This document shows, piece after piece, positions 1,462-51,712 of a DNA stretch of 64,000 nt (the first letter of the stretch is position 1; every line of letters starts with the position of its first letter). The stretch is from Vulcanimicrobiaceae bacterium (GTDB taxonomy: Bacteria > Vulcanimicrobiota > Vulcanimicrobiia > Vulcanimicrobiales > Vulcanimicrobiaceae): contig JBKQHO010000007.1 in assembly GCA_052267165.1 (NCBI GenBank), positions 50,180 through 114,179 of the forward strand. The letters run 5' to 3'. Position numbers and translations under genes: made by a program. Below the pieces are notes generated by a model. That model was given only the letters and a program-made list of their open reading frames with translations, was not told the origin of the DNA and ran no database searches.

Positions 1462-1492
1462 CTGAATTTCTCAGAAAAGGGCCGTTGCCACG

Positions 1493-1879: not shown

Positions 1880-1882
1880 CGT

Positions 1883-1898
1883 ACCGTCTCCGACGTAG
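1883..1898 (+). repeat. solo copy of 16-nt motif ACCGTCTCCGACGTAG, flanked by ACTAGCG boxes
   Basis: Exact 16-mer also found at 31865-31880 (+) and as reverse complement at 32024-32041. Local context: gACTAGCGTACC-GTCTCCGACGTAG-ACTAGCtagcg, directly after the hpf stop. Confidence 0.8.
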
Positions 1899-2027
1899 AC
1901 TAGCTAGCGTCGCGAAGGCCGGGCTCGCCCTAAGCGCGGTTCTCGCGAGGGGATAAATGTCGCAAGCCCGGCGCCGAGCGGAAGCTCGACGCCGGGCTCG
2001 CGAGGCTTCCGTGCTCGCGCTCGACGG

Positions 2028-7237: not shown

Positions 7238-7328
7238 TCGTCGCTCCTATCTCGGGGGCGAAGATCGATTCTCGATGCGATGCGAACGACCTTGGGGGAG
7301 CTTGACCGCCGACCCCCTGTCGCTTCGC

Positions 7329-8075: not shown

Positions 8076-8148
8076 ACACCCATCCCTGACCGGGATCTCA
8101 ACGCGCGATATTGCGGCTTTCTGTATTAGTCTATTTGGCGAGCGACGC

Positions 8149-9192
8149 CTATGCTCTCGCTTCTGTCGCCCGCAACCTGGCTGCCGCCGCGGCGTGACCG
8201 AGCCGCACGACCAGTTCGTGCGGGCCGCATCGCGCGGCCGCGGCCAGCCGATCGAGATCGGTCGTCTCGTCGATCAACGCGAGGGAACGCTCCTCGGGCG
8301 GAAGGCTGCGGTGGACGACGGCATACTGCATGCCGACCGCGAGGATGCCGAGGCCGCGCTCGGCGACGCGCGGCAAACCGTCGGCGTAGCCGCAGCGCAC
8401 CACCACCAGCCAGCCGCCCTCCGGCGCAAGGGCGGTGCCGTAGCTCATCAGCTGCCCGGCGGCCGGGACGACGCGAACGATATCGGCCCGCACCCGCAAG
8501 GCCGAGGCAACGGCCGGCAACGGCGCGCCGAAACGGAATCCGAACAGCCCGATCCCCAGGCGCACGCCCGCGCCGTCGGCGCCTTCCGCCAGCGGCACGG
8601 TGCTGGCGACGTCGGTCGCAACCACCGAGACTCCGGCGCGGCGCAAGGCCGCAACGGCCTTCTCGAAGCGCTCGCGCTGCGCGGCCGCCAGGCTCGGGTC
8701 GGTCAGATGGGTCCAGACCTCGACGTCGAGCGGCAGGGTCGCGATCACGCGCGCCAGGACCGCAACGGCGTCCGGGTCGACCCCGCCCCAGCTCGCGGCG
8801 TTGCGCACGCCCAGACGCACCCGCGCCCGCCGTCCGTGCGCGAGCGCCCACCCGCCGGCCGCGCCGAAGGCGGCGGCCTCGGCCAGGCTCGGAATACCCT
8901 CGCGCTCGAGCACGACGCGCACGTCGTCGGCGGCGACGTCGGCCAGGGTCGCGATTGGCCGTTGCGTGTACCCGCGAGCGCGCTCGAACTCGGCGATGTC
9001 GGCTACGAGATAGCCGTCGACGGCAGGGTCGACCGCGTCGATCATGCGCGCCAAACCCCAGCCGTAACCGTCGGCTTTGACGACGGCGCGCAATTCCGCG
9101 CCAGCGCGGGCCCGCCAGGCCGCCGCGTTGGCGCGCAGCGCCTGGCCGTCAAGTTCGATCCGGGGGCCGCCCGGCCCCGATGTTGCGTTCAC
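8149..9192 (-). CDS. alr: alanine racemase
   Basis: 347 aa. PLP-lysine motif AVVKADGYGWG; C-terminal MSYG...VVRCGYADGLPR. The GTG start overlaps the upstream stop as GTGA. Confidence 0.9.
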   Translation of the reverse strand: MNATSGPGGPRIELDGQALRANAAAWRARAGAELRAVVKADGYGWGLARMIDAVDPAVDGYLVADIAEFERARGYTQRPIATLADVAADDVRVVLEREGIPSLAEAAAFGAAGGWALAHGRRARVRLGVRNAASWGGVDPDAVAVLARVIATLPLDVEVWTHLTDPSLAAAQRERFEKAVAALRRAGVSVVATDVASTVPLAEGADGAGVRLGIGLFGFRFGAPLPAVASALRVRADIVRVVPAAGQLMSYGTALAPEGGWLVVVRCGYADGLPRVAERGLGILAVGMQYAVVHRSLPPEERSLALIDETTDLDRLAAAARCGPHELVVRLGHAAAAARLRATEARA

Positions 9193-9854
9193 CGCTGAGC
9201 GGTTCGCGGCGCGAGCGGCACCCCCGCCGAGACCAGGAAATCCCGCAGGCCGGCCAGATCGATCGCGGTCGTCGGCGCGCCGACCTCAGCGCTCGAAGCC
9301 AAACCGACGACCGAGCCGGTCGCGTCGACGACCGCGGCGGACGGGCCGCCGCGCGAACCGCGCGCGAGCGTGAAGGTGGAACTCGCCGGCGCAACCGCAT
9401 CGACGGTCGCCGTTTCGACGCGCACGTGCACGCGCGAGCCGGTCGAAAGCGTGGCCAGCGCGACCGGCTGGCCGGGCGCCACGCGGCCGAGCGCCGCGGA
9501 GAGCGGCGGCAGGCGCGGTTCATCGACCGTGATCAGCGCGGCGTTGAGGTTCGACGGCGCGCGAGCCGCGACGCGTCCGACCAGCGCCGGCGCATGCGCT
9601 CCGCCGACGAACACGTCGACGCTGGCCGCGGTTCCCAGCGGATCCTTCGGTACCAAAATATATGAGCCGTGCGGATCGGAGGCGACCACGACACCGGTGA
9701 GCGAGGTCACGACCATGCCGCTGCGGACTAACACCAATGCAAGCGACGGGAGGTCACGTGCCGCCGCCGCGCTCGAATCGGCGAAAGCGCGTGCGGGCAT
9801 CGACCAAGCCAGGGCGATCGTAAGGACCGCCAGGGCATGCCGCAATCTCAGCAT
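9189..9854 (-). CDS. secreted trypsin-like (S1C-like) domain protein, divergent and possibly non-catalytic
   Basis: Signal peptide MLRLRHALAVLTIALAWSMPARAFA; an alternative start is at 9878. It has GSRGGP where S1C proteases carry GNSGGP. The ORF-track start at 10103 is an unlikely extension that overlaps the divergent gene. Confidence 0.5.
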   Translation of the reverse strand: MLRLRHALAVLTIALAWSMPARAFADSSAAAARDLPSLALVLVRSGMVVTSLTGVVVASDPHGSYILVPKDPLGTAASVDVFVGGAHAPALVGRVAARAPSNLNAALITVDEPRLPPLSAALGRVAPGQPVALATLSTGSRVHVRVETATVDAVAPASSTFTLARGSRGGPSAAVVDATGSVVGLASSAEVGAPTTAIDLAGLRDFLVSAGVPLAPRTAQR

Positions 9855-9884
9855 ATCCAAAGGATCGGCCGCTACCATGGACAC

Positions 9885-10442
9885 ATGAAGTACGCCCTGG
9901 GACTCTTGAGTCTCGCATTCCTCCTCCCGCCGGCCGCCGCGCTGGCGGACGATACCCAGCCCCCACCGCCCCCACCCGGTGCCAGCGCACCGGCCGGCGA
10001 CCAGCACGCATTCTTTAATCGCATGCGTGAGGACCACGCGCAGATCGCCAAGATCATGCTGCAAGCGCGCTCGCAGATGCTCGGCGCCCTGACGCCCGAG
10101 CATCGCGCGCTGCTCGCCAAGGTGGTCGGCCAGCTCGCCGTCTCGACGAACCCCGACCCCGAGGCGGCTGCCCGTCAGCTCGATGCGGCCCTGTCGCCGT
10201 CGGAGGGCAAAGCGGTCTTAGCCGCTGAAGAGAACGCCCACACGCAGATGCGCAGCCTAATGCAGGGCGCGCGCGAGCACGGCGCTCGGCCCGGCGGCAA
10301 TATGGGACCCGGCCGCGGAGGACCGGGGGGACCCGGCGGACCGCCGCCCGACGGCAAGCGGCACGAGCACCGGACGCCTGACGCCGGCCGCATTCTGCTG
10401 CGCATGGCGAGCTTCGCTCCGATGGAGCGCGGCCCGCGCTAA
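9885..10442 (+). CDS. secreted hypothetical protein (helical, Pro/Gly-rich tail)
   Basis: Internal start MKYALGLLSLAFLLPPAAALA gives a signal peptide. A helical core follows (MREDHAQIAKIMLQARSQMLGALTPEHRALL), then GPGRGGPGGPGGPPP. It loosely resembles Spy/CpxP-type periplasmic proteins, but I could not confirm that. Confidence 0.5.
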   Translation: MKYALGLLSLAFLLPPAAALADDTQPPPPPPGASAPAGDQHAFFNRMREDHAQIAKIMLQARSQMLGALTPEHRALLAKVVGQLAVSTNPDPEAAARQLDAALSPSEGKAVLAAEENAHTQMRSLMQGAREHGARPGGNMGPGRGGPGGPGGPPPDGKRHEHRTPDAGRILLRMASFAPMERGPR

Positions 10443-10584
10443 CGCTGTCTAAGTCTAACGGTCCCCTTCGCGGAATCTCCGTCGAGGCGGCGGCGCAGCC
10501 GCTGCGCTTCCGCTTCGACACGACGGCCGAACCCGGTAACGTTCGCGATACGTCGAGTTCACGAGCGCGTGGCACGATGCGGGG

Positions 10585-11169
10585 ATGTCTTCGGTCGTCG
10601 ATTCGAGTGCCATCCTCATTCGCGGCGGTTCGGCCGCGATCGCAGCGGCGATCGGTGAAGCGTTAGCGCGCTTCGGTGAGCCAGCGCTTGCCTTCGCCGC
10701 CGCGCACGGCATCGCGATCGTTCCGCTCGACGGCGCGCAACGCTATCGCGAAGCGTCCGCGTCCCTGCGCCGCCTCGGCGTCGACGTCGACGCGTGGCCC
10801 GTTCCGCCGGCCGGACTGTTCGTCGTCGAAGAGCGCACGGTGTATCTTCGCCAGCCGAGCCCGATGACGGTCGCGCACGAGTTCGGCCACGCGCTGGATT
10901 GCGCGCTCGGCGGCGGGGTCTACCGCAGCGGCTACGATCTGCGCGTCCGCCGCGCGTTCGCGCGGGCCCGCGAGTTCGTGACACCCTACGCTGCGACGGG
11001 CCTTGACGAGTATTTCGCCGAGTCGCTGCGCGCGTACGTGGAAGTCAACGATCCGCACTCGCCGTGGCCCAAAGCGACCCGCGTGCGCCTGGCCGCCGTC
11101 GACCGGCCGATGCACGACTTCGTCGCCGAGCTGTTCGCCCAGACGCTCGGCGCGCGCAGCGCCGGCTAG
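10585..11169 (+). CDS. small HExxH zinc metallopeptidase, anthrax-lethal-factor-like (ATLF/M34-like) motif set
   Basis: 194 aa, no signal peptide. HEFGHALD is followed about 40 aa later by DEYFAESLRAY. This is the same HEFGHAxD...E[FY]FAE arrangement I recall from the lethal factor catalytic domain. Confidence 0.6.
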   Translation: MSSVVDSSAILIRGGSAAIAAAIGEALARFGEPALAFAAAHGIAIVPLDGAQRYREASASLRRLGVDVDAWPVPPAGLFVVEERTVYLRQPSPMTVAHEFGHALDCALGGGVYRSGYDLRVRRAFARAREFVTPYAATGLDEYFAESLRAYVEVNDPHSPWPKATRVRLAAVDRPMHDFVAELFAQTLGARSAG

Positions 11170-11199
11170 CGCTAGCGCGGCTACCGGGACCCGCGAACG

Positions 11200-12432
11200 T
11201 CAGGCCGCTTGTGCGGCCGAGGGCTCGATCTTGACGCGCCGGCGCTCGCTGCCCGCGGCCCAAATCAAGGCGACCAGCAAGAAGTTCGCGACCAGCGAGC
11301 TTCCGCCGTACGACACGAACGGCAGCGTGATGCCGGTGAGCGGGAACAGGCCGAGCACGCCGCCCACGATGATCGCAACCTGAAAGCCGAGCGTCGCCGC
11401 GAGTCCGGTCGCCAACAGCTTCGCGTAGAGGTCGGGCTGCGACTGCGCTACGGCCAGCGCGCGCAGGAGCAAGACGAGAAAGGCCACGACCAACACGATG
11501 CCGCCAAGCGCGCCGAACTCTTCGCTGAGCGCGGCATAGATGTAATCGGTGCTGACGGCGGGTATGTAATCGGGGTGCCCGAGGCCGTATCCCGTTCCGA
11601 ACAGACCGCCGGCGGCCAGCGAAAAGAGCCCTTGCAGCGCTTGATAACCGCGTCCCAGCGGATCGGCGAAGGGATCGCGCCAGACCGCGAAGCGCGCGTC
11701 GACGTAGCTGTAATGCCGCACGGCCCACCAGACCGCCAGCGCGAAGAGTCCGAAGCCTCCGGCGATCAAGTCGACGCGCCGGGTCGCGACGTAGAGCATC
11801 GCCGCGAACGTCGCGAGCAGCAGCGTCGCCATGCCGATGTCGCGTTCAAACACGAGGATCGCCATCGACGCGCCCCAGCCCAGGAACAGCGGGCCCAAAT
11901 ATTTCGCGTTGGCGCGGAACGACCACGGCTTGGCGGCCGCGATCACGTCGGCGGTCTCCGCCAAATACGCCGCCATGAAGAGCACGATGAAGAGCTTGAT
12001 CAACTCGATCGGCTCGTATTGGATCGGGCCGATCCGAATCCAGAGCTTCGCGCCGTTGACCTCCTGGCCGAAGAGCGCGACCAACACGAACAGCACGATC
12101 GAGCCCAAGACCCAGATATACTTGTAGGCCGCGAACCGGCGAAAGCGATCGAACACGAAACCGGCCGCGAGCGCGAGCGCGAGCGAGAGCCCGAGCCACT
12201 GCTCCTGCCGTTGCGCGAGCACGCTCGAAAGACGCGCCACCATCGTCAGCCCTAAGCACGAGATCAAGACCGCGAGCGCCGGCAGCACGTCGTCGCGGCG
12301 CACGTCGAGCGGAGAGCGAAGGACCCAGGCGAACGCGCCGGCCGCCAGCAGCGCCAGCACCCACGACGGCCCGAGCGCACTGCGCGGAGCCAACGACAAC
12401 GCGAAACCACCGACGGCGAGCGCCGCCGCCAT
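11200..12432 (-). CDS. rodA: SEDS-family peptidoglycan glycosyltransferase (RodA/FtsW)
   Basis: 410 aa polytopic membrane protein. SEDS signatures GPIQYEPIELIKLFIVLFMAAYL and GLGHPDYIPAVSTDYIYA. It follows fhaA-fhaB-PP2C, as in actinobacterial rodA loci. Confidence 0.85.
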   Translation of the reverse strand: MAAALAVGGFALSLAPRSALGPSWVLALLAAGAFAWVLRSPLDVRRDDVLPALAVLISCLGLTMVARLSSVLAQRQEQWLGLSLALALAAGFVFDRFRRFAAYKYIWVLGSIVLFVLVALFGQEVNGAKLWIRIGPIQYEPIELIKLFIVLFMAAYLAETADVIAAAKPWSFRANAKYLGPLFLGWGASMAILVFERDIGMATLLLATFAAMLYVATRRVDLIAGGFGLFALAVWWAVRHYSYVDARFAVWRDPFADPLGRGYQALQGLFSLAAGGLFGTGYGLGHPDYIPAVSTDYIYAALSEEFGALGGIVLVVAFLVLLLRALAVAQSQPDLYAKLLATGLAATLGFQVAIIVGGVLGLFPLTGITLPFVSYGGSSLVANFLLVALIWAAGSERRRVKIEPSAAQAA

Positions 12433-12445
12433 CGGGGCGACGCGC

Positions 12446-13375
12446 TTAAGAACGATCGGAATTAACGATGACCGGCGGATGATCGATCAAACCGAAGCGG
12501 AACACGTAGATGCCGACCGAGATCGCCGCGACCAGCAACAAGACGACCGCGACGAGCGTCCGAATGCGGCGTTCGAAACGCGCGCCCGCGGTGGCCGCCG
12601 GGAAAGAGGCGACGAGCAATTCGCGGGCGACGATCAGCGTGCCGTTGTCGACGCTTCCCCGAGAGCGCGTGGTCGCGAGGATGCGCGTCACGGCCTCCGA
12701 GGCGCTGTCGCAGTGCAGCAGGGCGTCGCCGATCTCCTCGCCGTCGACGCAACGGTGCACGCCGTCCGTGCAGAGCACCAGCTGATCGCCTGCGAGCAAC
12801 TCGACGTGCGCGATGCTCGCCTCCAGCTTGGCCTGCGTGCCCAGGCTGCGCCACAGCACGCCGCGCGTGCGCGGACGGGCCGGCAACGACGTCTTGGCAC
12901 TGGTCACGGCGGCGTCGGCAAACAGCGCGTCGTCCACCGTCAGCGGCTCGAGATGACCCAAGCGCAACAGATACGCGCGCGCGTCGCCGACGTGGCCTAC
13001 GAAGGCGTGCCGGCCGACCACCAGCACCGCCGTCAGCGACGAGCCGCTGGCGACGAAATCCTCATGGCTGCCGCTCTGCGCGAAGAGGCGCGCGTTGGCA
13101 TGATCGAGCGCGGAGAGCAGCAAGGCGCGCAGGTTCGCCGGTGAGCTTTGCCGTCCCCCGAAGGCGCCGAGGCGATGGCGGCGGCGCAGATAGTCACGCA
13201 CCGTCGAGACCGCGAGCGAGGCGGTCGTGCCGCGTCCGAGCGACCCGAACCCGTCCGCGATTCCGAGGAAGGTGACGTTGGGCGCGATCGACTCGCTCGC
13301 GTACGCGTCGCTCTGCTGCCGCTGCCACAGCCCTAGTTCGGAACCGACTGCTACTTCCACGGCCCCACCCCGCAA
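12446..13375 (-). CDS. PP2C-family Ser/Thr protein phosphatase with C-terminal TM anchor
   Basis: IADGFGS, GHVGDARAY and LVLCTDGV motifs; C-terminal hydrophobic helix LVAVVLLLVAAISVGIYVF. Start uncertain: TTG at 13375 or GTG at 13360, and both overlap the fhaB-like stop. Confidence 0.85.
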   Translation of the reverse strand: MRGGAVEVAVGSELGLWQRQQSDAYASESIAPNVTFLGIADGFGSLGRGTTASLAVSTVRDYLRRRHRLGAFGGRQSSPANLRALLLSALDHANARLFAQSGSHEDFVASGSSLTAVLVVGRHAFVGHVGDARAYLLRLGHLEPLTVDDALFADAAVTSAKTSLPARPRTRGVLWRSLGTQAKLEASIAHVELLAGDQLVLCTDGVHRCVDGEEIGDALLHCDSASEAVTRILATTRSRGSVDNGTLIVARELLVASFPAATAGARFERRIRTLVAVVLLLVAAISVGIYVFRFGLIDHPPVIVNSDRS

Positions 13376-13767
13376 AAGACGATTCGTGTCGTGCCGATGT
13401 CGATCTCGTCACCGTCGTGCAGCGGAACGGGTTCGTCGATCGGCCGCGCGTTCACCAGCGTTCCGTTGCGACTGTCGAGGTCGCGGATACTCAGGGCTCC
13501 GTCGGTGAGGTCGATTCGTGCGTGTAGCCGGCTCACTTGCGCGTCGGGGATGACCAGCGTTGCGGACGGGGCGCGCCCGATCGTAATCGGAGGCGGAACG
13601 CACACCGTTCGCGTGCGAGCATCTTCCTCCACGCGCAGCACAACCGCCTGCATCGCCGTCATGGCATCTTCGCGCTGGCGGTGCCGGCGCGGTAAGGCGA
13701 GGAGTAAGAAGAGCGACGCGGCCGCGACGACTTCCAGGCTTGCCAAGCGAGCATCGCCCGCGTTCAC
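13351..13767 (-). CDS. FHA-domain protein with N-terminal TM segment (FhaB/FipA-like)
   Basis: 138 aa. TM segment LEVVAAASLFLLLAL, then FHA core ITIGRAPSATLVIPDAQVSRLHARI...SRNGTLVN. GTGA overlap with the upstream gene. Confidence 0.85.
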   Translation of the reverse strand: MNAGDARLASLEVVAAASLFLLLALPRRHRQREDAMTAMQAVVLRVEEDARTRTVCVPPPITIGRAPSATLVIPDAQVSRLHARIDLTDGALSIRDLDSRNGTLVNARPIDEPVPLHDGDEIDIGTTRIVFCGVGPWK

Positions 13768-14429
13768 GGCGCGGCCTCCTCATCGGCTTGGACCACGAGC
13801 TCGCTGTCGCCGAGCACGACGACGTCGCCGCAGCGCAGCGTTCCGTCAGAGACGCGGCGTCCGTTCACATAGGTGCCGTTCGACGAGCCCAGATCGCTGA
13901 ACCGCACCGCGCCCTCGTTCGTCATCTCGAGCGCGAGATGGCGGCGCGAGACGCGCGGGTCGAGCAACGCGAGCTCGCACGTCGCGTCGCGCCCGACGAC
14001 GAGCGGCGCGCGCAGCGCGACCTGGGCGCCCGGCGGCACGCCGCGCCGCAGGCGCAGCGAAAGCCGGGTCGGCTCGGGCAACGGCTCGACGGCAATGCCG
14101 ACGGTGCCCGCGGCAACCGAGGGATCGGCGTGCATCGTCACCTCGGGCGCGCGTTGCGGAAAACCCGAGCGTTCGGCCAGCCGCGCCAGCATCGCGGACC
14201 ACTGCCGCTCGAGGTAAGCGCGATTGCGTTCGAAGCGCACCAGATCGCCCGGCGCGAGCAGAACGGTGAAGCGACGCCCGCCGCGCCCGTCGGGCGCGCC
14301 GCCGGCCTCGAACGCCGCGACCAGCTTACGCGCGATCTGCACCGGCTCGAGCGCGCTCGGAAAGGCCAGCGCGAAGGCTCGCTCGACGGCGCTCGCGCAG
14401 GCGGCCTCGAGCCGCGCGAACACGCTCAT
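13764..14429 (-). CDS. FhaA-like protein (DUF3662 N-terminal domain + C-terminal FHA)
   Basis: 221 aa. MSVFARLEAACASAVERAFA...PVQIARKL is the DUF3662 pattern. C-terminal FHA: LVVGRDATCELALLDPRVSRRHL...SSNGTYVNG. Confidence 0.85.
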   Translation of the reverse strand: MSVFARLEAACASAVERAFALAFPSALEPVQIARKLVAAFEAGGAPDGRGGRRFTVLLAPGDLVRFERNRAYLERQWSAMLARLAERSGFPQRAPEVTMHADPSVAAGTVGIAVEPLPEPTRLSLRLRRGVPPGAQVALRAPLVVGRDATCELALLDPRVSRRHLALEMTNEGAVRFSDLGSSNGTYVNGRRVSDGTLRCGDVVVLGDSELVVQADEEAAP

Positions 14430-26220: not shown

Positions 26221-26523
26221 GTGACTGAACTGTTAGATCAGAGCGGCGATGCGACGAGCGCCGAGGCGCCGGCCACCGAACCCCGCCGCAAGGCCACGCG
26301 CAAGAAAGCCACGCGCAAAAAGGCCGCCGCCAAGAAGGCGCCCGGGCGCAAGAAGGCCGCCGCCAAGAAGACCACCCGTAAGAAGGCCGCAGCCAAAAAG
26401 GCACCCGCTCGCAAGAAGGCCGCCGCCAAGAAGACCACCCGCAAGAAGGCGACCGGCGGACGCAAGAAGGCCGCCGCCAAGAAGACCACCCGCAAGAAGG
26501 CCACGCGCAAGAAGAAAGTCTAG
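26221..26523 (+). CDS. histone H1-like Lys/Ala-rich nucleoid protein
   Basis: 100 aa. Acidic N-terminus, then RKKAAAKK(APG/TT) repeats to the end. Strong SD. The coding DNA is itself tandemly repetitive. Confidence 0.75.
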   Translation: MTELLDQSGDATSAEAPATEPRRKATRKKATRKKAAAKKAPGRKKAAAKKTTRKKAAAKKAPARKKAAAKKTTRKKATGGRKKAAAKKTTRKKATRKKKV

Positions 26524-43496: not shown

Positions 43497-44567
43497 TCAA
43501 AAGACCGGGACGAACGCGCTCAGGTCTAAATGGCGGATATCCAGACCCGAGATGCCGATCTCGGGGATCGCCGGAAATGGAACGTCGTAGCGGTCAAGCA
43601 CGTCCTTGAACCTGAGCATCGCACTGCGCCAGTTCTCCTTTTTAAGGTCGAAGCGCGGGACGCCGAAGCCCGCGGCTCGCGCGATCTCCTCGCAGTGGCG
43701 CTGGACCCCGATGAAGTCGCCCGGCAGATCCCAAAAGTCCTCCGGCGGCTCGAAGAGCACGGCGGACAGGAAGAGGTAGCCGGCCCGCACTTGCTTCGTG
43801 ATCTGCAGCTTGTCGTCGGACGAGAGCGTCGGATAGTCCCGCTCGATCAGCGAGGTGCAGAGGGCGATGTGACGCTCTTCGTCCCGTCCCACGTTGCGAA
43901 ACGCCTCTTTGAAGACCGGCTCGTTACAGCCGCGAACCATCTGCCGGTAGATCGTGGCGGCCGCCAGCTCGCCCATCAAGAACGAGCTGAAGAGCACCGT
44001 CAAGCTGTACTTCGAAATGGCTTTGCGGAAGCCGCTCCAGTAGCGCGCGCCGTTGTAGTAGAGCCAGCGCACGTTGCGCTGCGCCTTCTCGCCGAGCTCG
44101 GTCTTCGGCTCGTAGACGAGCGGACTGCCCGATTCCAGCAGCCGCGCGATCGCCATCCCGCAGAGTTGCTCGTGATTCTGCTCGTCGCGCACCAGTGAGA
44201 AGAACGCGCGGCGCACCGGATCCTCCTCGTGCACCTCGTACGCCTTGATCAAGGCTTCCGCGAAAACCGGCGGAGCCGATCCGTCGAAGACCGAGAGCAG
44301 CGACCACCAGTAAGCGATTGCCTCGCGTTCTTCCCACGTGTAGCGCGTGGGCTCGAACGTCTCCCAAGGAAGCTTGGCCGGATCCCAATAGTCGCGCTGC
44401 GAGGCGTCCCAGATCGCTTCGAATTGCGGCGTGCGTCGTTCCCAGCTCAGCGGAAAGACGTTGGGCTGCGCTATATCCGGCGGCAGCTCCATCGCATCTG
44501 CAAACCGGTCGTGCATCGCCCGCATCGTCTTGCCCCCGTGTACATGAAGAAACTTTCCACCGCGCAT
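43497..44567 (-). CDS. ferritin-like di-iron carboxylate protein (putative oxygenase/oxidase)
   Basis: 356 aa. Two ExxH motifs (DEQNHEQ, DEERHIA), each preceded by a helix with a Glu (FAEAL, MGELAA). Subfamily not identifiable by eye. Start could be 44567, 44525 or 44516. Confidence 0.65.
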   Translation of the reverse strand: MRGGKFLHVHGGKTMRAMHDRFADAMELPPDIAQPNVFPLSWERRTPQFEAIWDASQRDYWDPAKLPWETFEPTRYTWEEREAIAYWWSLLSVFDGSAPPVFAEALIKAYEVHEEDPVRRAFFSLVRDEQNHEQLCGMAIARLLESGSPLVYEPKTELGEKAQRNVRWLYYNGARYWSGFRKAISKYSLTVLFSSFLMGELAAATIYRQMVRGCNEPVFKEAFRNVGRDEERHIALCTSLIERDYPTLSSDDKLQITKQVRAGYLFLSAVLFEPPEDFWDLPGDFIGVQRHCEEIARAAGFGVPRFDLKKENWRSAMLRFKDVLDRYDVPFPAIPEIGISGLDIRHLDLSAFVPVF

Positions 44568-44708
44568 CGTAGGACCGCGATGTGAGGAAGTTGAGAAGGT
44601 CCCATGAGGCTGCCTATAATGAGGAGCATCGTTAGCCGAACGCCTGCCTTGCCAGGCGTCGAGCGAGAGCGGTCGGCTCTCTTGGCGGGAGAGACGCGCG
44701 AGAAGAGA

Positions 44709-44734
44709 CTATCATATTCAAATAATGAGATATG
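44709..44734. promoter_or_regulatory. AT-rich imperfect palindrome overlapping the arsR-family start (candidate operator)
   Basis: CATAT-N12-ATATG within ctATCATATTCAAATAATGAGATATG. It is the only AT-rich island upstream of the hydrogenase operon. I saw no SD before the ATG at 44725. Confidence 0.3.
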
Positions 44735-45045
44735 TCTTCAAAGCCGAGTTCTTCAAGGCTTTGGCGCACCCGCTACGGATCCAGGTCCTCGACGAACTGC
44801 GCGGCGGCCCGCTGAACGTCACCGAGCTGCGCGACCGTCTGGGAGTCGAGCAGTCGACGCTCTCGCAGCAGCTCGCGGTGCTGCGCTCCAGAAATCTGGT
44901 CGCTACGGCTCGCCAGGGCAACACGATCCGTTACGAGGTGCGCGACCCCGCGATCTGGCTACTGCTCGACTCGGCCCGCACGATCTTCGACAACCAGCTC
45001 GTCTCCGTGCAGAGCGTGCTCGAAGAGCTGCGCGGCGGGGCGTAG
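44725..45045 (+). CDS. ArsR/SmtB-family transcriptional regulator
   Basis: FKALAHPLRIQVLDEL...LNVTELRDRLGVEQSTLSQQLAVLRSRNLV winged-HTH. No Cys and a single His in the whole protein. The stop TAG abuts the next ATG. Confidence 0.9.
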   Translation: MRYVFKAEFFKALAHPLRIQVLDELRGGPLNVTELRDRLGVEQSTLSQQLAVLRSRNLVATARQGNTIRYEVRDPAIWLLLDSARTIFDNQLVSVQSVLEELRGGA

Positions 45046-46905
45046 ATGCGCGCGTTCGGAGTGGCGGCGACGGCGGCCGTCGCGCTGGCGGCCGCCGTGC
45101 TGGGAGCCTTCGCCCTCGTCCACGGCGGCACGCTGCCGGTCGAGTACGAAGGGCCGGTCCCGGCGTTGGCCCTCACGTTCGGCGTAACGCCGCTGGGCGG
45201 GGTCTTTTGCGTGCTGCTCGCGCTCCTCGATACGGCCGTCGCGCTGTGGAGCGTGCTGCGCGGGAGCGCGCTCGACGCGCTCCTGATCGCTGCTTTCAGC
45301 GCGTCGATGCTGCTCGTGCTGTGCGCGCAGAGCGTGGCGGTCTTCTTCTTCGCTTGGGAGACGATGGCGCTGCTCTCGGCCTTCCTGATCGCGGCGCATC
45401 ACGAGCGGCGCAGCGTGCGGCGCGCGACCGCGCTCTATCTGCTCGTCTCGCAGACGGGCGCGGCTTGCGTGTTGGTCTCCCTCGTGCTGCTCGCGTATCA
45501 GGCCGGCTCGCCGTCGTTCTACGTCATCGCGCAGGGCGCGCCGCTGCTCCCCGCCGGGATCCGCAACGCCGCGATCGCCTTCGCGCTGGTCGGCTTTGGT
45601 TCGAAAGCGGGCTTCGTGCCGCTCCACTTCTGGCTGCCGCGCGCGCACCCGGTCGCCCCGCCGCACGCCTCGGCGTTGCTCTCGGGAGTGATGCTCAAGG
45701 TCGCGCTCTACGGACTGGCGACCGCGACCCTGACGCTGGCAGCTCCGGTGCCGCTGGCCTGGGGGATCGCGATCGTCGCGATCGGAACGGCCAGCGCGGT
45801 CGCGGGCGTGCTCTATGCGGTCGTCGACCGCGACCTCAAACGGCTGCTGGCTTATTCGTCGGTCGAGAACGCGGGGATCGTCGCGATCGGACTCGGCGCA
45901 GCGCTGGTCGCCGGCGCCGAAGGGCTGCCGGCGGTCGCAGCGCTCGCGCTGACCGCCGCGCTCTTTCACGCCTTCAATCACGGGCTCTTCAAAGGGCTGC
46001 TCTTCTTGGGCGCGGGCGCCGTCGCGGACAGCGAAGGAACGGTCGACCTCGAGAAGCTCGGCGGTCTGCGCGAGCACATGGTCTGGACCGCGCCGGCCTT
46101 CTTGGTCGGCTGCGCCGCGATCGCGGGCCTGCCGCCGTTCAACGGCTTCGCCTCGGAATGGCTGACGTTCCAGAGCTTGGCGGCGGAGCTGATCGCGCGC
46201 GACGCCGCAGCCAAGGTCGCGACGCTCGGTGCGCTCGCCGGTCTCGCGCTCGCCGGCGGACTTGCGGTAGCCTGCTTCGCGCGCGTCTACGGGATCGCGT
46301 TCTTGGGCAAGCCGCGCCGCGCGTACGCCAAACCGCCCGTGCGGGAACGCGCCGATGCGCCGGCGGCCGCGCTCGTTATGCTGGCCGCGCTGTGCGCGCT
46401 CTTCGGCGTGCTGCCGGGGCTCGCGCTCGGGCCGCTCGGGCGCGTCGCGGCGTCCGTCCTCGACGTGCCGGCGCCGTCGTTTCCCTCGCTGCCGATCCTG
46501 CCCGCGACGCTCGCGTTGCTGCCGTTGCTCGGCGCGCTCGCGGCCGTCTCGCTGGCCGCGCGGCGCGGCGTGCGCAGCGTTCCGACCTGGACCTGCGGGT
46601 CGCCCGTCACGCCCGCGGCGGCCTACACCGCGACCGCCTTCGCGAAGCCCTTGCGGCGCATCTTCGCCTTCGTGCTTGCCCCCGAATCGCTGCGCACACT
46701 CGAAGGCGGCGACTCGCCTTGGTTTCCGCAGCGCATCGTCTATCAAACCGACAGCCGCTATCTGATCGACGAGACGGCGCGGCGCTTCGCGGCGCTCGCC
46801 TTCCGCGTCGTGCGCCGTTCTAAATTGGTGCAGAGTGGCAGCCTGCGGCTCTACCTAGCCTACGCCGTCGGCGCGCTGATCCTGACCGTGGTGGCCGCGC
46901 GATGA
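45046..46905 (+). CDS. group-4 hydrogenase antiporter-like membrane subunit (HyfB/HycC/NuoL-like)
   Basis: 619 aa polytopic. ...GFGSKAGFVPLHFWLPRAHPVAPPHASALLSGVMLK... proton-pump signature. Confidence 0.85.
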   Translation: MRAFGVAATAAVALAAAVLGAFALVHGGTLPVEYEGPVPALALTFGVTPLGGVFCVLLALLDTAVALWSVLRGSALDALLIAAFSASMLLVLCAQSVAVFFFAWETMALLSAFLIAAHHERRSVRRATALYLLVSQTGAACVLVSLVLLAYQAGSPSFYVIAQGAPLLPAGIRNAAIAFALVGFGSKAGFVPLHFWLPRAHPVAPPHASALLSGVMLKVALYGLATATLTLAAPVPLAWGIAIVAIGTASAVAGVLYAVVDRDLKRLLAYSSVENAGIVAIGLGAALVAGAEGLPAVAALALTAALFHAFNHGLFKGLLFLGAGAVADSEGTVDLEKLGGLREHMVWTAPAFLVGCAAIAGLPPFNGFASEWLTFQSLAAELIARDAAAKVATLGALAGLALAGGLAVACFARVYGIAFLGKPRRAYAKPPVRERADAPAAALVMLAALCALFGVLPGLALGPLGRVAASVLDVPAPSFPSLPILPATLALLPLLGALAAVSLAARRGVRSVPTWTCGSPVTPAAAYTATAFAKPLRRIFAFVLAPESLRTLEGGDSPWFPQRIVYQTDSRYLIDETARRFAALAFRVVRRSKLVQSGSLRLYLAYAVGALILTVVAAR

Positions 46906-47792
46906 GCGCGATTTCGATCGCGGCGATGCTGCTCCAAGTCGTCGCGATCGTCGCGCTCGCACCGCTGGTACAAGGAACGATGAAGCTCCTGCGCGCGCGG
47001 TTGCAAGGCCGCCCCGGAGCTTCGCCTCTCCAGCCGTACCGCGATCTCGCCAAGCTCTGGCAGAAAGAGGCGCTGCTGCCCGCGGGCGTCTCGTTCGTCA
47101 CGCTGGCCGCGCCGGGCGTGGTGCTCGGCGTCGCGCTCACCTTCGTCGCCGCGTTGCCGCTCGGCCCGCGCGGCGGCATCGCTTCGTTCGCCGACGCGGT
47201 CGCGCTCGTTCTGTTGCTGGCGCTGGGCCGGTTTGCGCTGATCCTGGCCGCGCTGGACACGCGCAGCTCCTTCAGCGGCATGGCGGCGAGCCGCGAGGCG
47301 ACCTTCGGCGCCCTGGTCGAGCCGGCGCTGCTGCTTTCGCTGCTCGGCGCCGCGGCGATGGGCGGCGGCACGAAGCTGTCGGCCCTCGCCGCGCTGCCGC
47401 TCACGCCGGCCTCGGTGCTGGCCTTCGCGGCCTTCTTTCTCGTCTCGCTGGCCGAGACGGCCCGCGTGCCGATCGACAACCAGGAGACGCACTACGAGCT
47501 GACCATGATCCACGAAGGTTTGGTCCTCGAGTATTCCGGCTGGCAGCTGGCGCTGTTGCAGGGCGCAGCCTATGTCAAGCAGGTCGGCTTTCTGTTGCTG
47601 GCCGGAATGCTGCTGCCGGGGCCGGCCTGGTGGGCGCACGCGGGCTGGGCGCTGGCGATCGCCTGCGGCATCACGCTGGTCGAGACCGCGCTCGCGAAGC
47701 TGCGTTTGTTCGAGGTGCCGCAGGTACTGGGGACGGCCTTCATTCTCGCCGCGACCAGCATCGGGCTGCGCTTCTTCGGGGGGATGCCGTGA
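46902..47792 (+). CDS. group-4 hydrogenase NuoH-like membrane subunit (HyfC/HycD-like)
   Basis: 296 aa. AETARVPIDNQETHYELTMIHEG motif. ATGA overlap upstream. Confidence 0.85.
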   Translation: MSAISIAAMLLQVVAIVALAPLVQGTMKLLRARLQGRPGASPLQPYRDLAKLWQKEALLPAGVSFVTLAAPGVVLGVALTFVAALPLGPRGGIASFADAVALVLLLALGRFALILAALDTRSSFSGMAASREATFGALVEPALLLSLLGAAAMGGGTKLSALAALPLTPASVLAFAAFFLVSLAETARVPIDNQETHYELTMIHEGLVLEYSGWQLALLQGAAYVKQVGFLLLAGMLLPGPAWWAHAGWALAIACGITLVETALAKLRLFEVPQVLGTAFILAATSIGLRFFGGMP

Positions 47793-48400
47793 GCGTCGAG
47801 CTCCTCGTGCTGCTGGCAGGCGCCGTCCTGATCGTCAGCGCGCGCACCCTCTTCGTCCTGGCCGCCTACGTCGTGCTGGCGGTGACGGCCAGCGTCCTAA
47901 TCTTTCCCTCGGTGCTCGCCTCGCCGGTCGCGCTCGCATTCTTCGTGGTCACCACGCTGATGAAAGTGGTCGTCGCTCCGCTCGGGGTGATCCTGTTCTT
48001 GCGCGGCAACCCGACGGCGGCGGACCTGCGCCCCTCGCTCACGCTGCCCATGCGCCTGCTGCTGGCGATCGGCTTCGCGCTCATCTCGGCAGCGGTCTCG
48101 CACATTCCCGCGCTCAGTGCGATCCCGCTACAACGGCTCGTCGCCTACGTCGTGCTGTGCGGCGTGGGGACCCTCGTGGTGCACCGCAACGTTCTCTCGA
48201 ACATCCTGGGCCTGCTGGCGCTGGGCGCCGGGGTCACGCTGGCCGGCGCCGCGCTTGCACCCCAGCTGCCGGAATCGGTCGAGCTCGGCGCGACCTTCGA
48301 CGCGCTCGTCGGCACCTTCATCGGGCTCGCGCTGATCCGCGAGTTCGCGGCCCACCATCCCGCGCTCGACGTCGAGTCGTTACGGCGATTGCGCGGATGA
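47789..48400 (+). CDS. HyfE-like small membrane subunit
   Basis: 203 aa, about 6 TM. HRNVLSNILGLLALGAGVTL...ELGATFDALVG resembles hydrogenase-4 component E. GTGA overlap upstream. Confidence 0.7.
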   Translation: MSVELLVLLAGAVLIVSARTLFVLAAYVVLAVTASVLIFPSVLASPVALAFFVVTTLMKVVVAPLGVILFLRGNPTAADLRPSLTLPMRLLLAIGFALISAAVSHIPALSAIPLQRLVAYVVLCGVGTLVVHRNVLSNILGLLALGAGVTLAGAALAPQLPESVELGATFDALVGTFIGLALIREFAAHHPALDVESLRRLRG

Positions 48401-49857
48401 TACTGCAAGCCAACGCGATCCTCGCGCCGCTGCTTGCGTCGCTGCTCCCGCTGTTCTTCCGGCCCGGCGGCCCGCGGCGCAACGCGCGCCTGACCCTCAG
48501 CACCGTCGCCGCGCTGCTGCCGGTGACGTTGGTCGGCCGCGTCGACGGACTCTCGCTCGGCTTCGCCGCGCTGGTCTCGATCATCGCGCTGCTGGCGACA
48601 TGGTTCTCTTCGGGCGGCGCGGCCTTCGCCCATCGCGTCGGCGACATCGTCGGCGACCCGCTCGAGGCCGCGGCCTGGTCGCGCGTCTCAGTCTACTTCG
48701 CGCTGCTGGGCGCGTTTTGGAGCGCGATGCTGCTCGTCGTGCTCGCGACCAATTTCACGGTGCTGTGGCTGGGCATCTCGGCGACGACGCTGGCGACCGC
48801 GTTTCTGGTCGGCTTCGCAAGCGAGTCGGCATCGCTCGAAGCGGCCTGGAAATATCTGGTGCTCTGCAGCGTCGGCATCGCCTTCGCGCTGCTCGGCATG
48901 CTGGTGCTGGCGCACGTCTCGCTGGCAGCCGGAATCGCGCCCGCGGACGCCCTCTCGTGGAACGCGATCGCGACCCATGCGCCCGCCGATCCGCCGCCGC
49001 TCGCCCGGCTCGCCGTCGCACTCATGCTGATCGGCTTCGCCACCAAGGCGGGTCTCGTTCCGATGCACTCGTGGCTCCCCGACGCGCACTCCAAGGCGCC
49101 CGCGCCGGTCAGCGGCCTGCTTTCGGGCGTGCTCGTCTCGTGCGCGCTCTATGCGATCATTCGCACGCTCGAAGTCGCCAAGGTGCTCGGCGCCGAGCCG
49201 CTCGCGCACACGATCCTGTTGACCGTCGGCGCGCTCTCGACGGTCTTCGCGGGCACCCTGATGCTGGGACAGACCGAGCTCAAACGTCTGCTGGCCTATT
49301 CGACGATCGAACACGCGGGGATCGTCGCCCTCGCGCTCGGCTTCGGCGGACCGTTCGGCCGGCTCGCGGCGCTCGTGCACATCATCGCGCACGCCTTCGC
49401 GAAATCGGCCGCCTTCTTCACGGCGGGCCTGGTGCTCCGCCGCGAAGGGACGACGTCGCTCAACGAGCTGCACGGTCTGTGGCGCTCGGGCACGGGCGGA
49501 CGAATGCTGCTCGCGACGATGACGGCGCTGGGCGGAATGCCGCCGTTCGGAATCTTCGTCAGCGAGCTGCTGGTGGTGATGGCGGGCGTGATCGCGCGCC
49601 AGTGGCTTCCGCTGGCGGCCGGACTCGTCGGCGTGGCGCTGGCCTTCACCGCGCTTTCGCGCGCCGCGATCGAGATCGAGTCGGGCAACCCGCACCCGCG
49701 CAAGAGCGCCCAAAGCGGACCGCTACGAACGCCGCTTTCGACCGGTGCGGCCGCGGTCGCGCTCGCGGGCGCATTCGCAGCCGCCTTCGTGCCCTGGACC
49801 GCGCTCGGCAGCGTGCTCCTCTCGGCGGCGACCGCGGTCGCGGGACAGGCGCCGTGA
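48397..49857 (+). CDS. group-4 hydrogenase antiporter-like membrane subunit (HyfF/HyfD/NuoN-M-like)
   Basis: 486 aa. GFATKAGLVPMHSWLPDAHSKAPAPVSGLLSGVL signature. ATGA overlap upstream. Confidence 0.85.
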   Translation: MILQANAILAPLLASLLPLFFRPGGPRRNARLTLSTVAALLPVTLVGRVDGLSLGFAALVSIIALLATWFSSGGAAFAHRVGDIVGDPLEAAAWSRVSVYFALLGAFWSAMLLVVLATNFTVLWLGISATTLATAFLVGFASESASLEAAWKYLVLCSVGIAFALLGMLVLAHVSLAAGIAPADALSWNAIATHAPADPPPLARLAVALMLIGFATKAGLVPMHSWLPDAHSKAPAPVSGLLSGVLVSCALYAIIRTLEVAKVLGAEPLAHTILLTVGALSTVFAGTLMLGQTELKRLLAYSTIEHAGIVALALGFGGPFGRLAALVHIIAHAFAKSAAFFTAGLVLRREGTTSLNELHGLWRSGTGGRMLLATMTALGGMPPFGIFVSELLVVMAGVIARQWLPLAAGLVGVALAFTALSRAAIEIESGNPHPRKSAQSGPLRTPLSTGAAAVALAGAFAAAFVPWTALGSVLLSAATAVAGQAP

Positions 49858-51311
49858 GCGGCATCTTTTCGAGCAAGCCGGAGGCCGAGGCGCTCGGGGT
49901 GTCGACGCAAGCCCGCCGCCAGGCGCACACGGCCGGCGAGGACGCGATCGAGATTCGCTGTCGCGAAGGCATGCCGCTGGGCGCCTACGCCGCGGCCGGC
50001 GTCGCGCGCTACGTGTTCCTCGAGCCCGGCGGAGCGTTCGCGGTCTCGCTGCCGCTCGAATTCGGCGCTCCGCTGCACTCGTTCGCCAACACCGTGCCGC
50101 TCTTCGCGTGGGACGAACGCGAGATGGCCGACGAGCGCGGGGTGCGCTTCACCGACTTGCCTGACGCTCGTCCGTTTCGCGCGCACGGCGGCGTGATGCC
50201 GCCCGCCGTCGTGGCCAGCGGTACGGGTTTGATGCACTTCGTCGTCGGTCCGGTGCACGCCGGGATCATCGAGCCCGGCCGCTTCACCTTCAGCTCGGGC
50301 GGCGAGAGCGTCGTCTATCTCGACGCGCAGCTCGGCTACGGTCACCGCGGCGTCGAACGTGCGCTCGAAGGCCAGCCCGCGCTCGCTGCCGCGCGGCGCG
50401 TCGGGCGAATCTGCGGCGGCTGCAGCGCAGCCCGCTCGCACGCCTATGCGCTCGCTCTCGAGAATCTCGCTCGGGTCACGCTTGCACCCGAGGTCGAGCT
50501 GGGACGGCTCGTCATCTGCGAGCTCGAGCGGATCTACAACCACCTCGCCGACCTCGCCGCCTCCGCCTCGGCGGCCGGCTGGGCGCCCGGCTTCGCAAAC
50601 GGTATGGCACTGAAGGAACGCGCGATGCGCGCCTGCGCGAACGCTTCGGGACACCGCTTGCTGTTCGATGCGATCGTCCCGGGCGGACTCGGCCCAGGGG
50701 TATTGGCGGCGCCGGAAGCGCTGCGCCGCGAGCTGGGCCTGCTCGCCGACGACGTGGAACGGTACGTCGGCGGCCTGTTCGGAAACGGTTCGGTCGTCTC
50801 GCGTTGGCTGCACGCGGGCGTCGTGACGCACGAGATCGCGCGCGCGTTCGGTGCGGTCGGCCCGGCGCATCGCGGCTCGCACGGCGAACGCGACGTGCGG
50901 CGCTTCGCGCCGTACGGCGCGTACCGGCGACTGCCGGTTACGGTCGCAACCCACGCGGGCGGTGACGTCTTCTCGCGCTGTTCGGTCAAGCGCGACGAGC
51001 TACACGAGTCGTTTCGGCTCGTCGAGGAGGCGCTCTCGCTGCTCGGCGACGCGCTCCCCGGCAGCGCGAACGTCACGCGGGAAGTCGCGCCCCGCAGCGG
51101 CGCCGTGCTCTCGGTGGTCGAAGGTCCGCGCGGCGCGGAGTTGCTCGCCGTCCACGTCGACGAAGGCGCACGGCTCGAGCGGCTGCACGCGATCTCGGCC
51201 TCGTACCGCAACTGGCCGCTCGTCGTGCGTGCCATGGAGGGCAATATCGTGCCGGATTTCCCGCTGGTCAACAAGAGCTTCAACCTCTGCTACGCGTGCG
51301 TGGACCGATGA
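49854..51311 (+). CDS. [NiFe]-hydrogenase group-4 large subunit, NuoC-NuoD fusion type (HycE/HyfG-like)
   Basis: 485 aa. NuoC-like WDEREMADERGVRF. NuoD-like GPVHAGIIEPGRFTF. N-terminal Ni-ligand pair RICGGCSAARSH. C-terminal pair in NLCYACVDR, followed immediately by the stop. GTGA overlap upstream. Confidence 0.85.
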   Translation: MSGIFSSKPEAEALGVSTQARRQAHTAGEDAIEIRCREGMPLGAYAAAGVARYVFLEPGGAFAVSLPLEFGAPLHSFANTVPLFAWDEREMADERGVRFTDLPDARPFRAHGGVMPPAVVASGTGLMHFVVGPVHAGIIEPGRFTFSSGGESVVYLDAQLGYGHRGVERALEGQPALAAARRVGRICGGCSAARSHAYALALENLARVTLAPEVELGRLVICELERIYNHLADLAASASAAGWAPGFANGMALKERAMRACANASGHRLLFDAIVPGGLGPGVLAAPEALRRELGLLADDVERYVGGLFGNGSVVSRWLHAGVVTHEIARAFGAVGPAHRGSHGERDVRRFAPYGAYRRLPVTVATHAGGDVFSRCSVKRDELHESFRLVEEALSLLGDALPGSANVTREVAPRSGAVLSVVEGPRGAELLAVHVDEGARLERLHAISASYRNWPLVVRAMEGNIVPDFPLVNKSFNLCYACVDR

Positions 51312-51712
51312 GCGCCTACCGCCGTTCGCTCGGCATCCGGCACCTCGTCTGCGGCAGCTGTAACGGTTGCGAGCACGAGATGAACGCGCTCAACAACGCC
51401 TTCTACGACATCACGCAAGAGGGTTGGGACATCGTCGCCTCGCCCCGTCATGCCGACGTGGTGACCGTGACCGGCCCGCAGACGCAGGCGATGCGCGAGC
51501 CCGCGCGAGAGACGCTCGCAGCGACGCCGCGCCCGTACGTCGTCGTCGCCGTCGGCGACTGCGCGGCCGGCGAAGGACCGTGGAGCGACGCGCCGGAGGC
51601 CGGCCGGGGCGCGGTGCTCGAGCTCGGCGCGCAGGTCGTCGTGAGCGGCTGTCCGCCCGAGCCGCAAGCGATCATCGCCGGCCTGCGCGAAGCCGCCGAG
51701 CGCCTCGGTTAA
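51308..51712 (+). CDS. [NiFe]-hydrogenase group-4 small subunit (NuoB/HycG/HyfI-like)
   Basis: 134 aa. CGSCNGCEHE, SPRHADVVTVTGP, VGDCA and SGCPPEP motifs ([4Fe-4S] ligands). ATGA overlap upstream. Confidence 0.85.
   Translation: MSAYRRSLGIRHLVCGSCNGCEHEMNALNNAFYDITQEGWDIVASPRHADVVTVTGPQTQAMREPARETLAATPRPYVVVAVGDCAAGEGPWSDAPEAGRGAVLELGAQVVVSGCPPEPQAIIAGLREAAERLG

Follow-up and report, generated by a model that had tools for sequence, protein, structure and literature searches.

Can a group 4 [NiFe]-hydrogenase do without the NuoI-like 2x[4Fe-4S] subunit that is typical of all characterized members of the group? The question is raised by seven genes in a 64-kb stretch of contig JBKQHO010000007.1 from a Vulcanimicrobiaceae bacterium (referred to below as the window; all coordinates are positions in it). 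These genes encode an ArsR-type regulator and six structural subunits, none of which is of the NuoI or HycF type. With moderate confidence, we read the operon as encoding a complex-I-like membrane oxidoreductase with six subunits that belongs to the lineage known as Ehr or group 4f and would still work as a [NiFe]-hydrogenase, with its redox partner docking directly. Judged by gene content, the absence of a NuoI/HycF-type subunit is a defining trait of this family and not a new architecture. What is new here is a Cys-retaining, Arg-substituted member from Eremiobacterota that is sister to the Ehr complex of Mycobacterium tuberculosis (Mtb).

The seven open reading frames (ORFs) lie on the + strand between 44725 and 51712 (Table 1) and are linked, in order, by a TAG-ATG junction followed by ATGA, GTGA, ATGA, GTGA, and ATGA. 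Between the end of the last gene, at 51712, and that of a convergent ORF, at 51726, lie 13 nt. ORF coordinates and a reading of the junctions thus bear out the overlap-coupled arrangement and the spacing given in the initial annotation, which was made from the sequence alone, and Pfam and NCBIfam support the product identities that it proposed. The 485-aa and 134-aa products were recovered identically by independent gene calls on other assemblies, and the former is 100% identical to a protein from a metagenome-assembled genome (MAG) at NCBI, ACLPYS_09170 (Vulcanimicrobiaceae bacterium, phylum Eremiobacterota). The six structural genes form a self-contained operon behind the ArsR gene, with which they are probably co-transcribed. 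No convincing intrinsic terminator was found 3' of the operon.

Absences in the window were checked by a six-frame motif scan, Pfam, and tblastn. The scan for CxxCxxCxxxC gave two places only, the internal ferredoxin domain of a pyruvate:ferredoxin oxidoreductase (PFOR) and the C-terminus of a GltD-like flavoprotein, and both of these proteins with 2x[4Fe-4S] domains differ from a NuoI-type subunit. Pfam was run on 47 of the 57 gene calls in the window, the remaining genes (numbers 20 to 30) being judged by eye; the functions seen were housekeeping ones, no formate dehydrogenase, CO dehydrogenase, Hyp, or HycI family was found among them, and Pfam gave no molybdopterin enzyme. When the window was searched by tblastn with E. 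coli HycF, HyfH, HycB, HyfA, HycI, HycH, HypA-E, FocB, and NuoI, nothing appeared beyond the ferredoxin domains of the PFOR and the GltD-like protein. The initial annotation had reported that the 64 kb lack a HycF/HyfH/EchF-type subunit, a formate or CO dehydrogenase, hyp genes, and HycI, and all of these absences were confirmed. The initial annotation had named ferredoxin reduced by the PFOR as one candidate electron donor, but linkage lends this idea no support: the PFOR gene lies 39 kb from the operon and is not syntenic in any relative.

Relatives were collected by a one-genome-per-species scan for homologs of the large subunit, which yielded 77 loci. These derive mostly from Eremiobacterota, the others being from Eisenbacteria, Melainabacteria, one cyanobacterium, Dormibacterota, and Limnocylindria, along with single MAGs of Acidimicrobiaceae and of an alphaproteobacterium. 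Every locus with enough sequence has the gene order HyfB-NuoH-HyfE-HyfF-large-small. Within 10 kb, 76 of the 77 loci have neither an ORF with two ferredoxin motifs nor a homolog of HycF/HyfH; because this absence is so widely shared, it is neither an assembly accident nor a local quirk, and the operon is truly without such a subunit, as first annotated. The exception, L068, is a distant locus (35% identity) in which a 142-aa HycF-like 2x[4Fe-4S] ORF (9408–9836), 42% identical to E. coli HycF, sits between the genes for the large and small subunits. This arrangement may be transitional or ancestral.

The flanks of the 77 loci (10 kb) contain no hyp, hycI, hycH, focB, or formate dehydrogenase genes, and no partner family (formate dehydrogenase, ferredoxin, hyp, or formate channel) is conserved across them. 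Clustering of 1283 flank ORFs gave lineage-local housekeeping genes only, and synteny past the ends of the operon is confined to the nearest relative, L042. Because no flanking family is conserved, the unit behaves as a self-contained module. One Eremiobacterota locus, L009, carries two divergent copies of the operon (261–5163 on the - strand and 5253–11793 on the + strand).

The same unit occurs in Mtb. The Rv0081 sequence, taken from the alignment to the solved structure 6jmi, was used to retrieve an Mtb-complex contig and the corresponding locus of M. riyadhense. The Mtb operon Rv0081-Rv0087 shares with the window the ArsR first gene and the same six structural families; the order is ArsR, an Oxidored_q6 protein (Rv0082), a Proton_antipo_M protein (Rv0083), an NADHdh protein (HycD), HycP, a second Proton_antipo_M protein (HycQ), and HycE, the last with Pfam matches to Complex1_30kDa, NiFeSe_Hases, and Complex1_49kDa. 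The five subunits from Rv0083 to HycE measure 640, 316, 220, 488, and 491 aa, compared with 619, 296, 203, 486, and 485 aa in the window. Identities for the alignable products are 47% (ArsR), 38%, 42%, and 39% (the HyfB-, NuoH-, and HyfF-like membrane subunits), 37% (large subunit), and 45% (small subunit). Pfam found no Fer4 protein in the Mtb operon, and the locus, like that in the window, is without NuoI/HycF, HycB, formate dehydrogenase, hyp, or HycI genes. The two operons differ in the place of the small-subunit gene, which directly follows the regulator in Mtb and comes last in the window.

The Mtb operon has been described as the Ehr complex (PMC6728331), with rv0082-rv0087 listed as two "probable oxidoreductases" followed by HycD, HycP, HycQ, and HycE. 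Six-gene clusters from Thermus brevis (PMC13019369) and Methylocystis (ehfA-F; bioRxiv 10.1101/2025.08.29.672306) have been assigned to HydDB group 4f (Ehf), the gene set of which (hyfB-, nuoH-, hyfE-, and hyfF-like genes, a fused NuoC/D, and a NuoB-like gene) is that of the window operon. Homologs on megaplasmids of Azospirillum and Variovorax (34–37% identity) are encoded with this six-gene set, again without NuoI; unlike the window operon, they have no ArsR gene. The Ehr complex of Geobacter sulfurreducens can be likened to the window set by description alone: its subunits as named, EhrA (NuoL-like), EhrC (HyfE-like), EhrL, and EhrS, match, no NuoI-type subunit is listed, and its function is given as unknown. 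In the literature searched, none of the 14 papers that mention group 4f deals with Eremiobacterota, and the description of the only cultured member treats group 1–2 hydrogenases only (PMC9758169).

Ehr/group 4f is thus a catalogued, widespread, and biochemically uncharacterized family. Because six-gene, NuoI-less clusters already bear these names, and the same ArsR-led unit is found as Rv0081-Rv0087, the proposal in the initial annotation of an undescribed architecture falls. That annotation had also foreseen that the large subunit might belong to a well-described subgroup that routinely lacks the ferredoxin subunit; such a subgroup does exist, but it is catalogued rather than biochemically well described.

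The assignment of the window operon to this family was made by cluster composition together with a neighbor-joining tree of large subunits, a small sample of 34 sequences with E. coli NuoCD as the root and 100 bootstrap replicates. In this tree, the Eremiobacterota clade has 100% support and is sister, with 93% bootstrap, to a Cys-less clade comprising the Mtb and proteobacterial sequences. The Eisenbacteria, L068, and a Melainabacteria/cyanobacterial clade branch deeper, and E. coli HycE and HyfG fall outside a 98%-supported clade that contains all NuoI-less clusters. The Ehr family is defined by a large subunit without Ni/Fe-binding ligands. The window operon shares the six-subunit, NuoI-less composition and the tree affinity of Ehr but has not lost its Cys. 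Both CxxC pairs are lost in the large subunits of Mtb, Azospirillum, and Variovorax (RISGD..., ...SY[AS]G[NH]DL; in Mtb, RISGDTS... and ...SYAGNDL), and the proteobacterial and Thermus examples of group 4f considered here are without Ni-binding Cys, whereas the window clade has them. The motif reported for Methylocystis 4f (PLHQIPVGP / ANGExVVRL / AARVS) maps to the Cys-less, Azospirillum-type sequence. An equation of AARVS with CSAARS of the window protein was considered and rejected, since AARVS matches AARIS(GDS) of the Azospirillum type.

In the large subunit, a NuoC-like N-terminus of reduced length is joined to a NuoD/HycE-like domain. The NuoC part is missed by Pfam and becomes visible in the profile alignment to HycE and in Pfam matches of homologs. 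The two CxxC pairs of the large subunit, RICGGCS (C187/C190) and CYACVDR (C479/C482), are intact, and the four Cys are invariant across the clade (members of the 77 loci with the Arg signature; 15-sequence alignment). The proton-relay Glu (E140) is also kept. Two canonical active-site His are replaced: R143 gives EPG-R-F for EPG-H-F, and R194 gives CxxCSxx-R for CxxCxxx-H. Both changes are present throughout the Eremiobacterota-type clade (loci L001-L055), with all four Cys retained, whereas the canonical His are kept in Eisenbacteria, Melainabacteria, L068, and E. coli. Mtb shows the reverse combination, with the His kept and the Cys pairs lost. The L1 motif carries G and R where what we take to be the HydDB motif calls for I/L/V and H, respectively.

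Among solved structures, the large subunit matches E. coli HycE best (7z0s, E 8.8e-45, 157 bits; MbhL, 113 bits). The hhalign alignment spans HycE residues 19–536, and the last residue of the window protein corresponds to the processing-site Arg (R536), so there is no C-terminal extension. Because the protein already ends at the Arg where HycI cuts HycE, the absence of HycI is expected and is not the gap that the initial annotation took it to be. Ech-, Coo-, and Mbh-type enzymes likewise need no HycI-type protease.

In the small subunit, CGSCNGC, GDCA, and GCPP would provide the ligands for one [4Fe-4S] cluster; of 71 related loci, 65 have these motifs intact. The top structural matches of the subunit are MbhJ (6cfw, 84 bits) and HycG (7z0s). 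In the small subunits from Melainabacteria and the cyanobacterium (L065, L072, L073, L076, and L077, at ~11.2–11.9 kb), the ligands are partly lost (GSCNAEE, GDGAC, PGDPP), while the large subunits of this group keep both CxxC pairs, a pattern opposite to that in Mtb and Proteobacteria.

Pfam, NCBIfam, and comparisons with E. coli agree that the operon has the NuoH-like and antiporter-like membrane subunits expected of the group. The HyfB-like subunit has "hydrogenase 4 subunit B" as its best NCBIfam model (499 bits), shares 34% identity with E. coli HyfB across 636 aa, and retains equivalents of NuoM E144, K234, K265, and E407. The NuoH-like subunit is 33–37% identical to HycD/HyfC. The HyfE-like subunit is recognized by the NCBIfam model "hydrogenase 4 membrane subunit" (E 9.6e-11) and by Pfam Oxidored_q2, and an 81-aa stretch aligns to HyfE at 36% identity. 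The HyfF-like subunit has "hydrogenase 4 subunit F" as its best NCBIfam model (315 bits) and is 40% identical to HyfF. In its motif WLGISATT, Ser replaces the Glu of transmembrane helix 5 (TM5; the equivalent of NuoM E144). Replacement of this Glu by Ser, Thr, or Ala occurs in the Eremiobacterota clade only; the residue is kept in E. coli HyfF, Mtb Rv0086, Eisenbacteria, and Melainabacteria.

The window complex is probably catalytically competent. Several observations weigh against a working hydrogenase. Arg occupies both canonical active-site His positions clade-wide, the HyfF-like subunit has lost the TM5 Glu, hyp genes are absent from the window and from all 10-kb flanks, and nothing is genetically linked to the operon as an electron partner. 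In addition, the nearest sister clade has lost its NiFe ligands, which makes a loss or change of hydrogenase chemistry in the lineage plausible.

The substitutions, the missing hyp genes, the degenerate HyfF-like subunit, and a sister clade (Mtb, Azospirillum, and Variovorax) that has the same six genes without the CxxC pairs would also fit a complex that is not a hydrogenase at all, namely a complex-I-like ion pump or a redox module acting on another substrate, whose Cys would bind either no NiFe center or a different metal site. We consider this rather unlikely, since the invariance of all four Cys in the Arg-signature clade is difficult to account for if there is no metal site, and both the relay Glu E140 and the [4Fe-4S] ligands are kept. 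Moreover, Arg could still donate the hydrogen bond that normally comes from the L1 His. Eremiobacterota often carry other [NiFe]-hydrogenases (PMC9758169), which implies that hyp genes are present in such genomes.

If the complex is a working hydrogenase, the NiFe site would exchange electrons with its redox partner by way of the single [4Fe-4S] cluster of the small subunit. The simplest choice of partner would be a low-potential ferredoxin or flavodoxin, docked directly on the surface that NuoI covers in formate hydrogenlyase (FHL), Ech, and Mbh. The NuoH-, HyfE-, and HyfB-like subunits of the arm, and possibly the HyfF-like one, would couple this reaction to the translocation of ions. The reaction could run in the direction of H2 evolution, disposing of reductant, or of H2 uptake. 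A fuller version of this proposal, which we advance tentatively, is that of a working [NiFe]-hydrogenase with one FeS cluster and no NuoI wire that exchanges electrons directly with a soluble carrier, and that represents both an intact sister of Ehr and an intermediate toward it. The Arg-for-His site and the degenerate second antiporter would then mark the intermediate on the way from a hydrogenase to Ehr.

Another possibility is that the operon encodes the core of a larger, FHL-like enzyme, with a NuoI/HycF-like subunit, a HycB-like ferredoxin, and a formate or other dehydrogenase encoded elsewhere in the genome and assembling onto it. HydDB lists group 4f as "formate-coupled (putative)" with an undetermined role, in Methylocystis, 4f/Ehr genes and formate dehydrogenases are induced together (bioRxiv 10.1101/2025.08.29.672306), Ehr is abundant on formate in Geobacter, and L068 still has its HycF homolog between the large and small subunits. 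However, neither the window nor the 10-kb flanks of the 77 loci contain a formate dehydrogenase, the trait associated with 4f, and no flanking family is conserved across the loci. The missing subunit has no gene in or beside the operon in 76 of these loci or in the Mtb, Azospirillum, and Variovorax clusters, and it would be unusual for an operon of overlap-coupled genes to have one structural subunit encoded at a separate site in every case. We therefore regard an FHL-like core as improbable.

E. coli Hyd-3 (HycBCDEFG, 7z0s) is the closest solved structure to the window large subunit, and the group 4a enzymes Hyd-3 and Hyd-4 share with the window operon the NuoC-NuoD fusion, the CxxC pairs, the NuoB-like small subunit, and HyfB/C/E/F-like membrane subunits, HyfD being absent here. 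Only E. coli has the FeS subunits HycF/HyfH and HycB/HyfA, FdhF, HycH, and HycI, and HycI removes from the E. coli large subunit a C-terminal extension of 32 residues that has no equivalent in the window protein. Regulation differs as well, with FhlA/HyfR in E. coli and an ArsR type in the window. In short, the window operon lacks three features of group 4a, namely the FeS subunits with FdhF, the C-terminal extension, and grouping with HycE/HyfG.

The large subunits of Ech (4e) and Mbh (4d), like that of the window, stop at the L2 motif, and these enzymes share the predicted role in energy conversion; the small subunit of Mbh, MbhJ, is the closest to that of the window. EchF and MbhN are NuoI-like subunits that form the ferredoxin site, and the window operon has no such subunit. 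For Ech, this role of the NuoI-like subunit has been described (PMC3578206). NuoC is a separate protein in Ech and Mbh and is fused in the window; where the window operon has two antiporter-like subunits, Ech has only one and Mbh contains an Mrp-type module. The initial annotation had suggested a hybrid of a Hyf-type membrane arm and an Ech/Coo-type large subunit. The first half stands, as the arm is Hyf-like in its HyfB and HyfF homologs; the second does not, as the large subunit is NuoC-fused, closest to HycE, and resembles Ech/Coo solely in having no C-terminal extension. As a previously undescribed type, such a hybrid is very improbable, given that the same architecture occurs in Mtb, Proteobacteria, and other phyla under the names Ehr and group 4f.

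Table 1. Features of the operon, its upstream region, and the two other genes of the window that encode 2x[4Fe-4S] domains.
Feature	Coordinates	Strand	Size (aa)	Mtb counterpart	Basis or remarks
Candidate sigma-70-type promoter, TTGAGA-18 nt-TATAAT	44591..44620	+			Consensus scan; ~105 nt 5' of regulator gene
Candidate operator, ATATTCAAATA	44714..44724	+			Abuts ArsR start codon
ArsR/SmtB-family regulator, Rv0081 type	44725..45045	+	106	Rv0081	Pfam HTH_20/HTH_5, NCBIfam HTH_metalloreg
HyfB/NuoL-like antiporter-type subunit	45046..46905	+	619	Rv0083	Proton_antipo_M
NuoH/HycD/HyfC-like subunit	46902..47792	+	296	Rv0084	Pfam NADHdh, E 1.4e-33
HyfE-like small membrane subunit	47789..48400	+	203	Rv0085	NuoK-like C-terminal half
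HyfF/NuoN-like antiporter-type subunit	48397..49857	+	486	Rv0086	Proton_antipo_M
Large (catalytic) subunit	49854..51311	+	485		Complex1_49kDa and weak NiFeSe_Hases match
NuoB-like small subunit	51308..51712	+	134	Rv0082	Pfam Oxidored_q6, E 9e-22
PFOR	2028-5669	-	1213		Internal ferredoxin domain
GltD/SudA-like flavoprotein	5606-7237	-	543		Fer4_20, Pyr_redox_2, C-terminal 2x[4Fe-4S] domain

The regulator also ties the operon to its Mtb counterpart. Of all solved structures, that of Rv0081 (6jmi) matches it best, in an alignment that covers the full length (E 4.6e-18). The window regulator contains no Cys and one His and therefore has no canonical metal-sensing site; Rv0081 has likewise been described as being without metal sites. 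An ArsR homolog is found immediately 5' of the structural genes, on the same strand, in 39 of the 61 loci with enough upstream sequence, including those of Melainabacteria. In L025, L027, and L030, an ArsR homolog lies on the opposite strand just 3' of the small-subunit gene, as a second copy in the first two and as the sole copy in L030. In an Mtb-complex read assembly (L085, 6582–7004), the Rv0081 ORF was called at 140 aa and diverges from the PDB sequence after "...RVAV," which looks like a frameshift or a variant joining towards Rv0082.

The candidate promoter, a pattern match only, scores 11 of 12 consensus positions, in a region that yields 3 sites where 0.2 are expected. The pattern ATATT[CT][GA]AATA has a single match in the 64 kb and lies within 66 nt 5' of the ArsR start in 16 of the 39 loci; for comparison, the 2.6 Mb of locus sequence contain 23 matches when both strands are counted. 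In relatives, the ATATTCAAATA site belongs to a (G)AATATTC(G)AATAT-like palindrome, and the Melainabacteria regulators are preceded by related palindromes (GCGAATATTCGC); the motif is not obviously present in the upstream region of Mtb Rv0081. We infer that this AT-rich palindromic site is a putative operator. In Mtb, rv0081 is the autoregulating first gene of its operon, and the ArsR protein of the window would similarly repress the operon by binding the AT-rich palindrome at its own start.

Other features of the window (G+C 64–74%) were noted in passing; it contains no Rfam family or tRNA. The genes for the PFOR and the GltD/SudA-like flavoprotein overlap by 64 nt, and the pair may form a pyruvate-to-NAD(P)H electron route. 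Divergent from the operon, a 356-aa protein (43497–44567, - strand) with weak ferritin-like/rubrerythrin/AurF/EncB matches is conserved in the nearest relative L042 only. A suspected hyp cluster at 23.6–29 kb (721, 90, 347, and 347 aa) proved, when the translations were inspected, to consist of topoisomerase I, a spurious repeat ORF, and two ABC ATPases. A tandem 15/30/63-nt repeat (CAAGAAGGCCGCCGC) occupies 26301–26514; its + strand frame would encode a Lys/Ala-rich segment resembling the tail of histone H1 or HupB, and the called ORF is the antisense frame. On the - strand at 11200–14429, genes for an FhaA-like protein, an FHA-domain protein, a PP2C phosphatase, and FtsW/RodA resemble the actinobacterial fhaA-fhaB-pstP-rodA cell-division cluster.

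Taken alone, the finding leaves the catalogue of hydrogenase architectures unchanged. Its interest lies in the family: Ehr/4f complexes include the Mtb operon behind the hypoxia- and dormancy-linked regulator Rv0081, and a large clade of mostly soil- and peat-dwelling Eremiobacterota keeps the seven-gene unit together with intact NiFe and FeS ligands. These intact ligands point to an H2-linked ancestry of the Mtb-type complexes. The loci described here, Cys-retaining and Cys-less, with His or Arg, and with or without HycF, form a comparative set for the function of NuoI-less, complex-I-like enzymes. If the Eremiobacterota complex is indeed a working hydrogenase sister, it would offer a route to learning what Ehr/4f complexes do.

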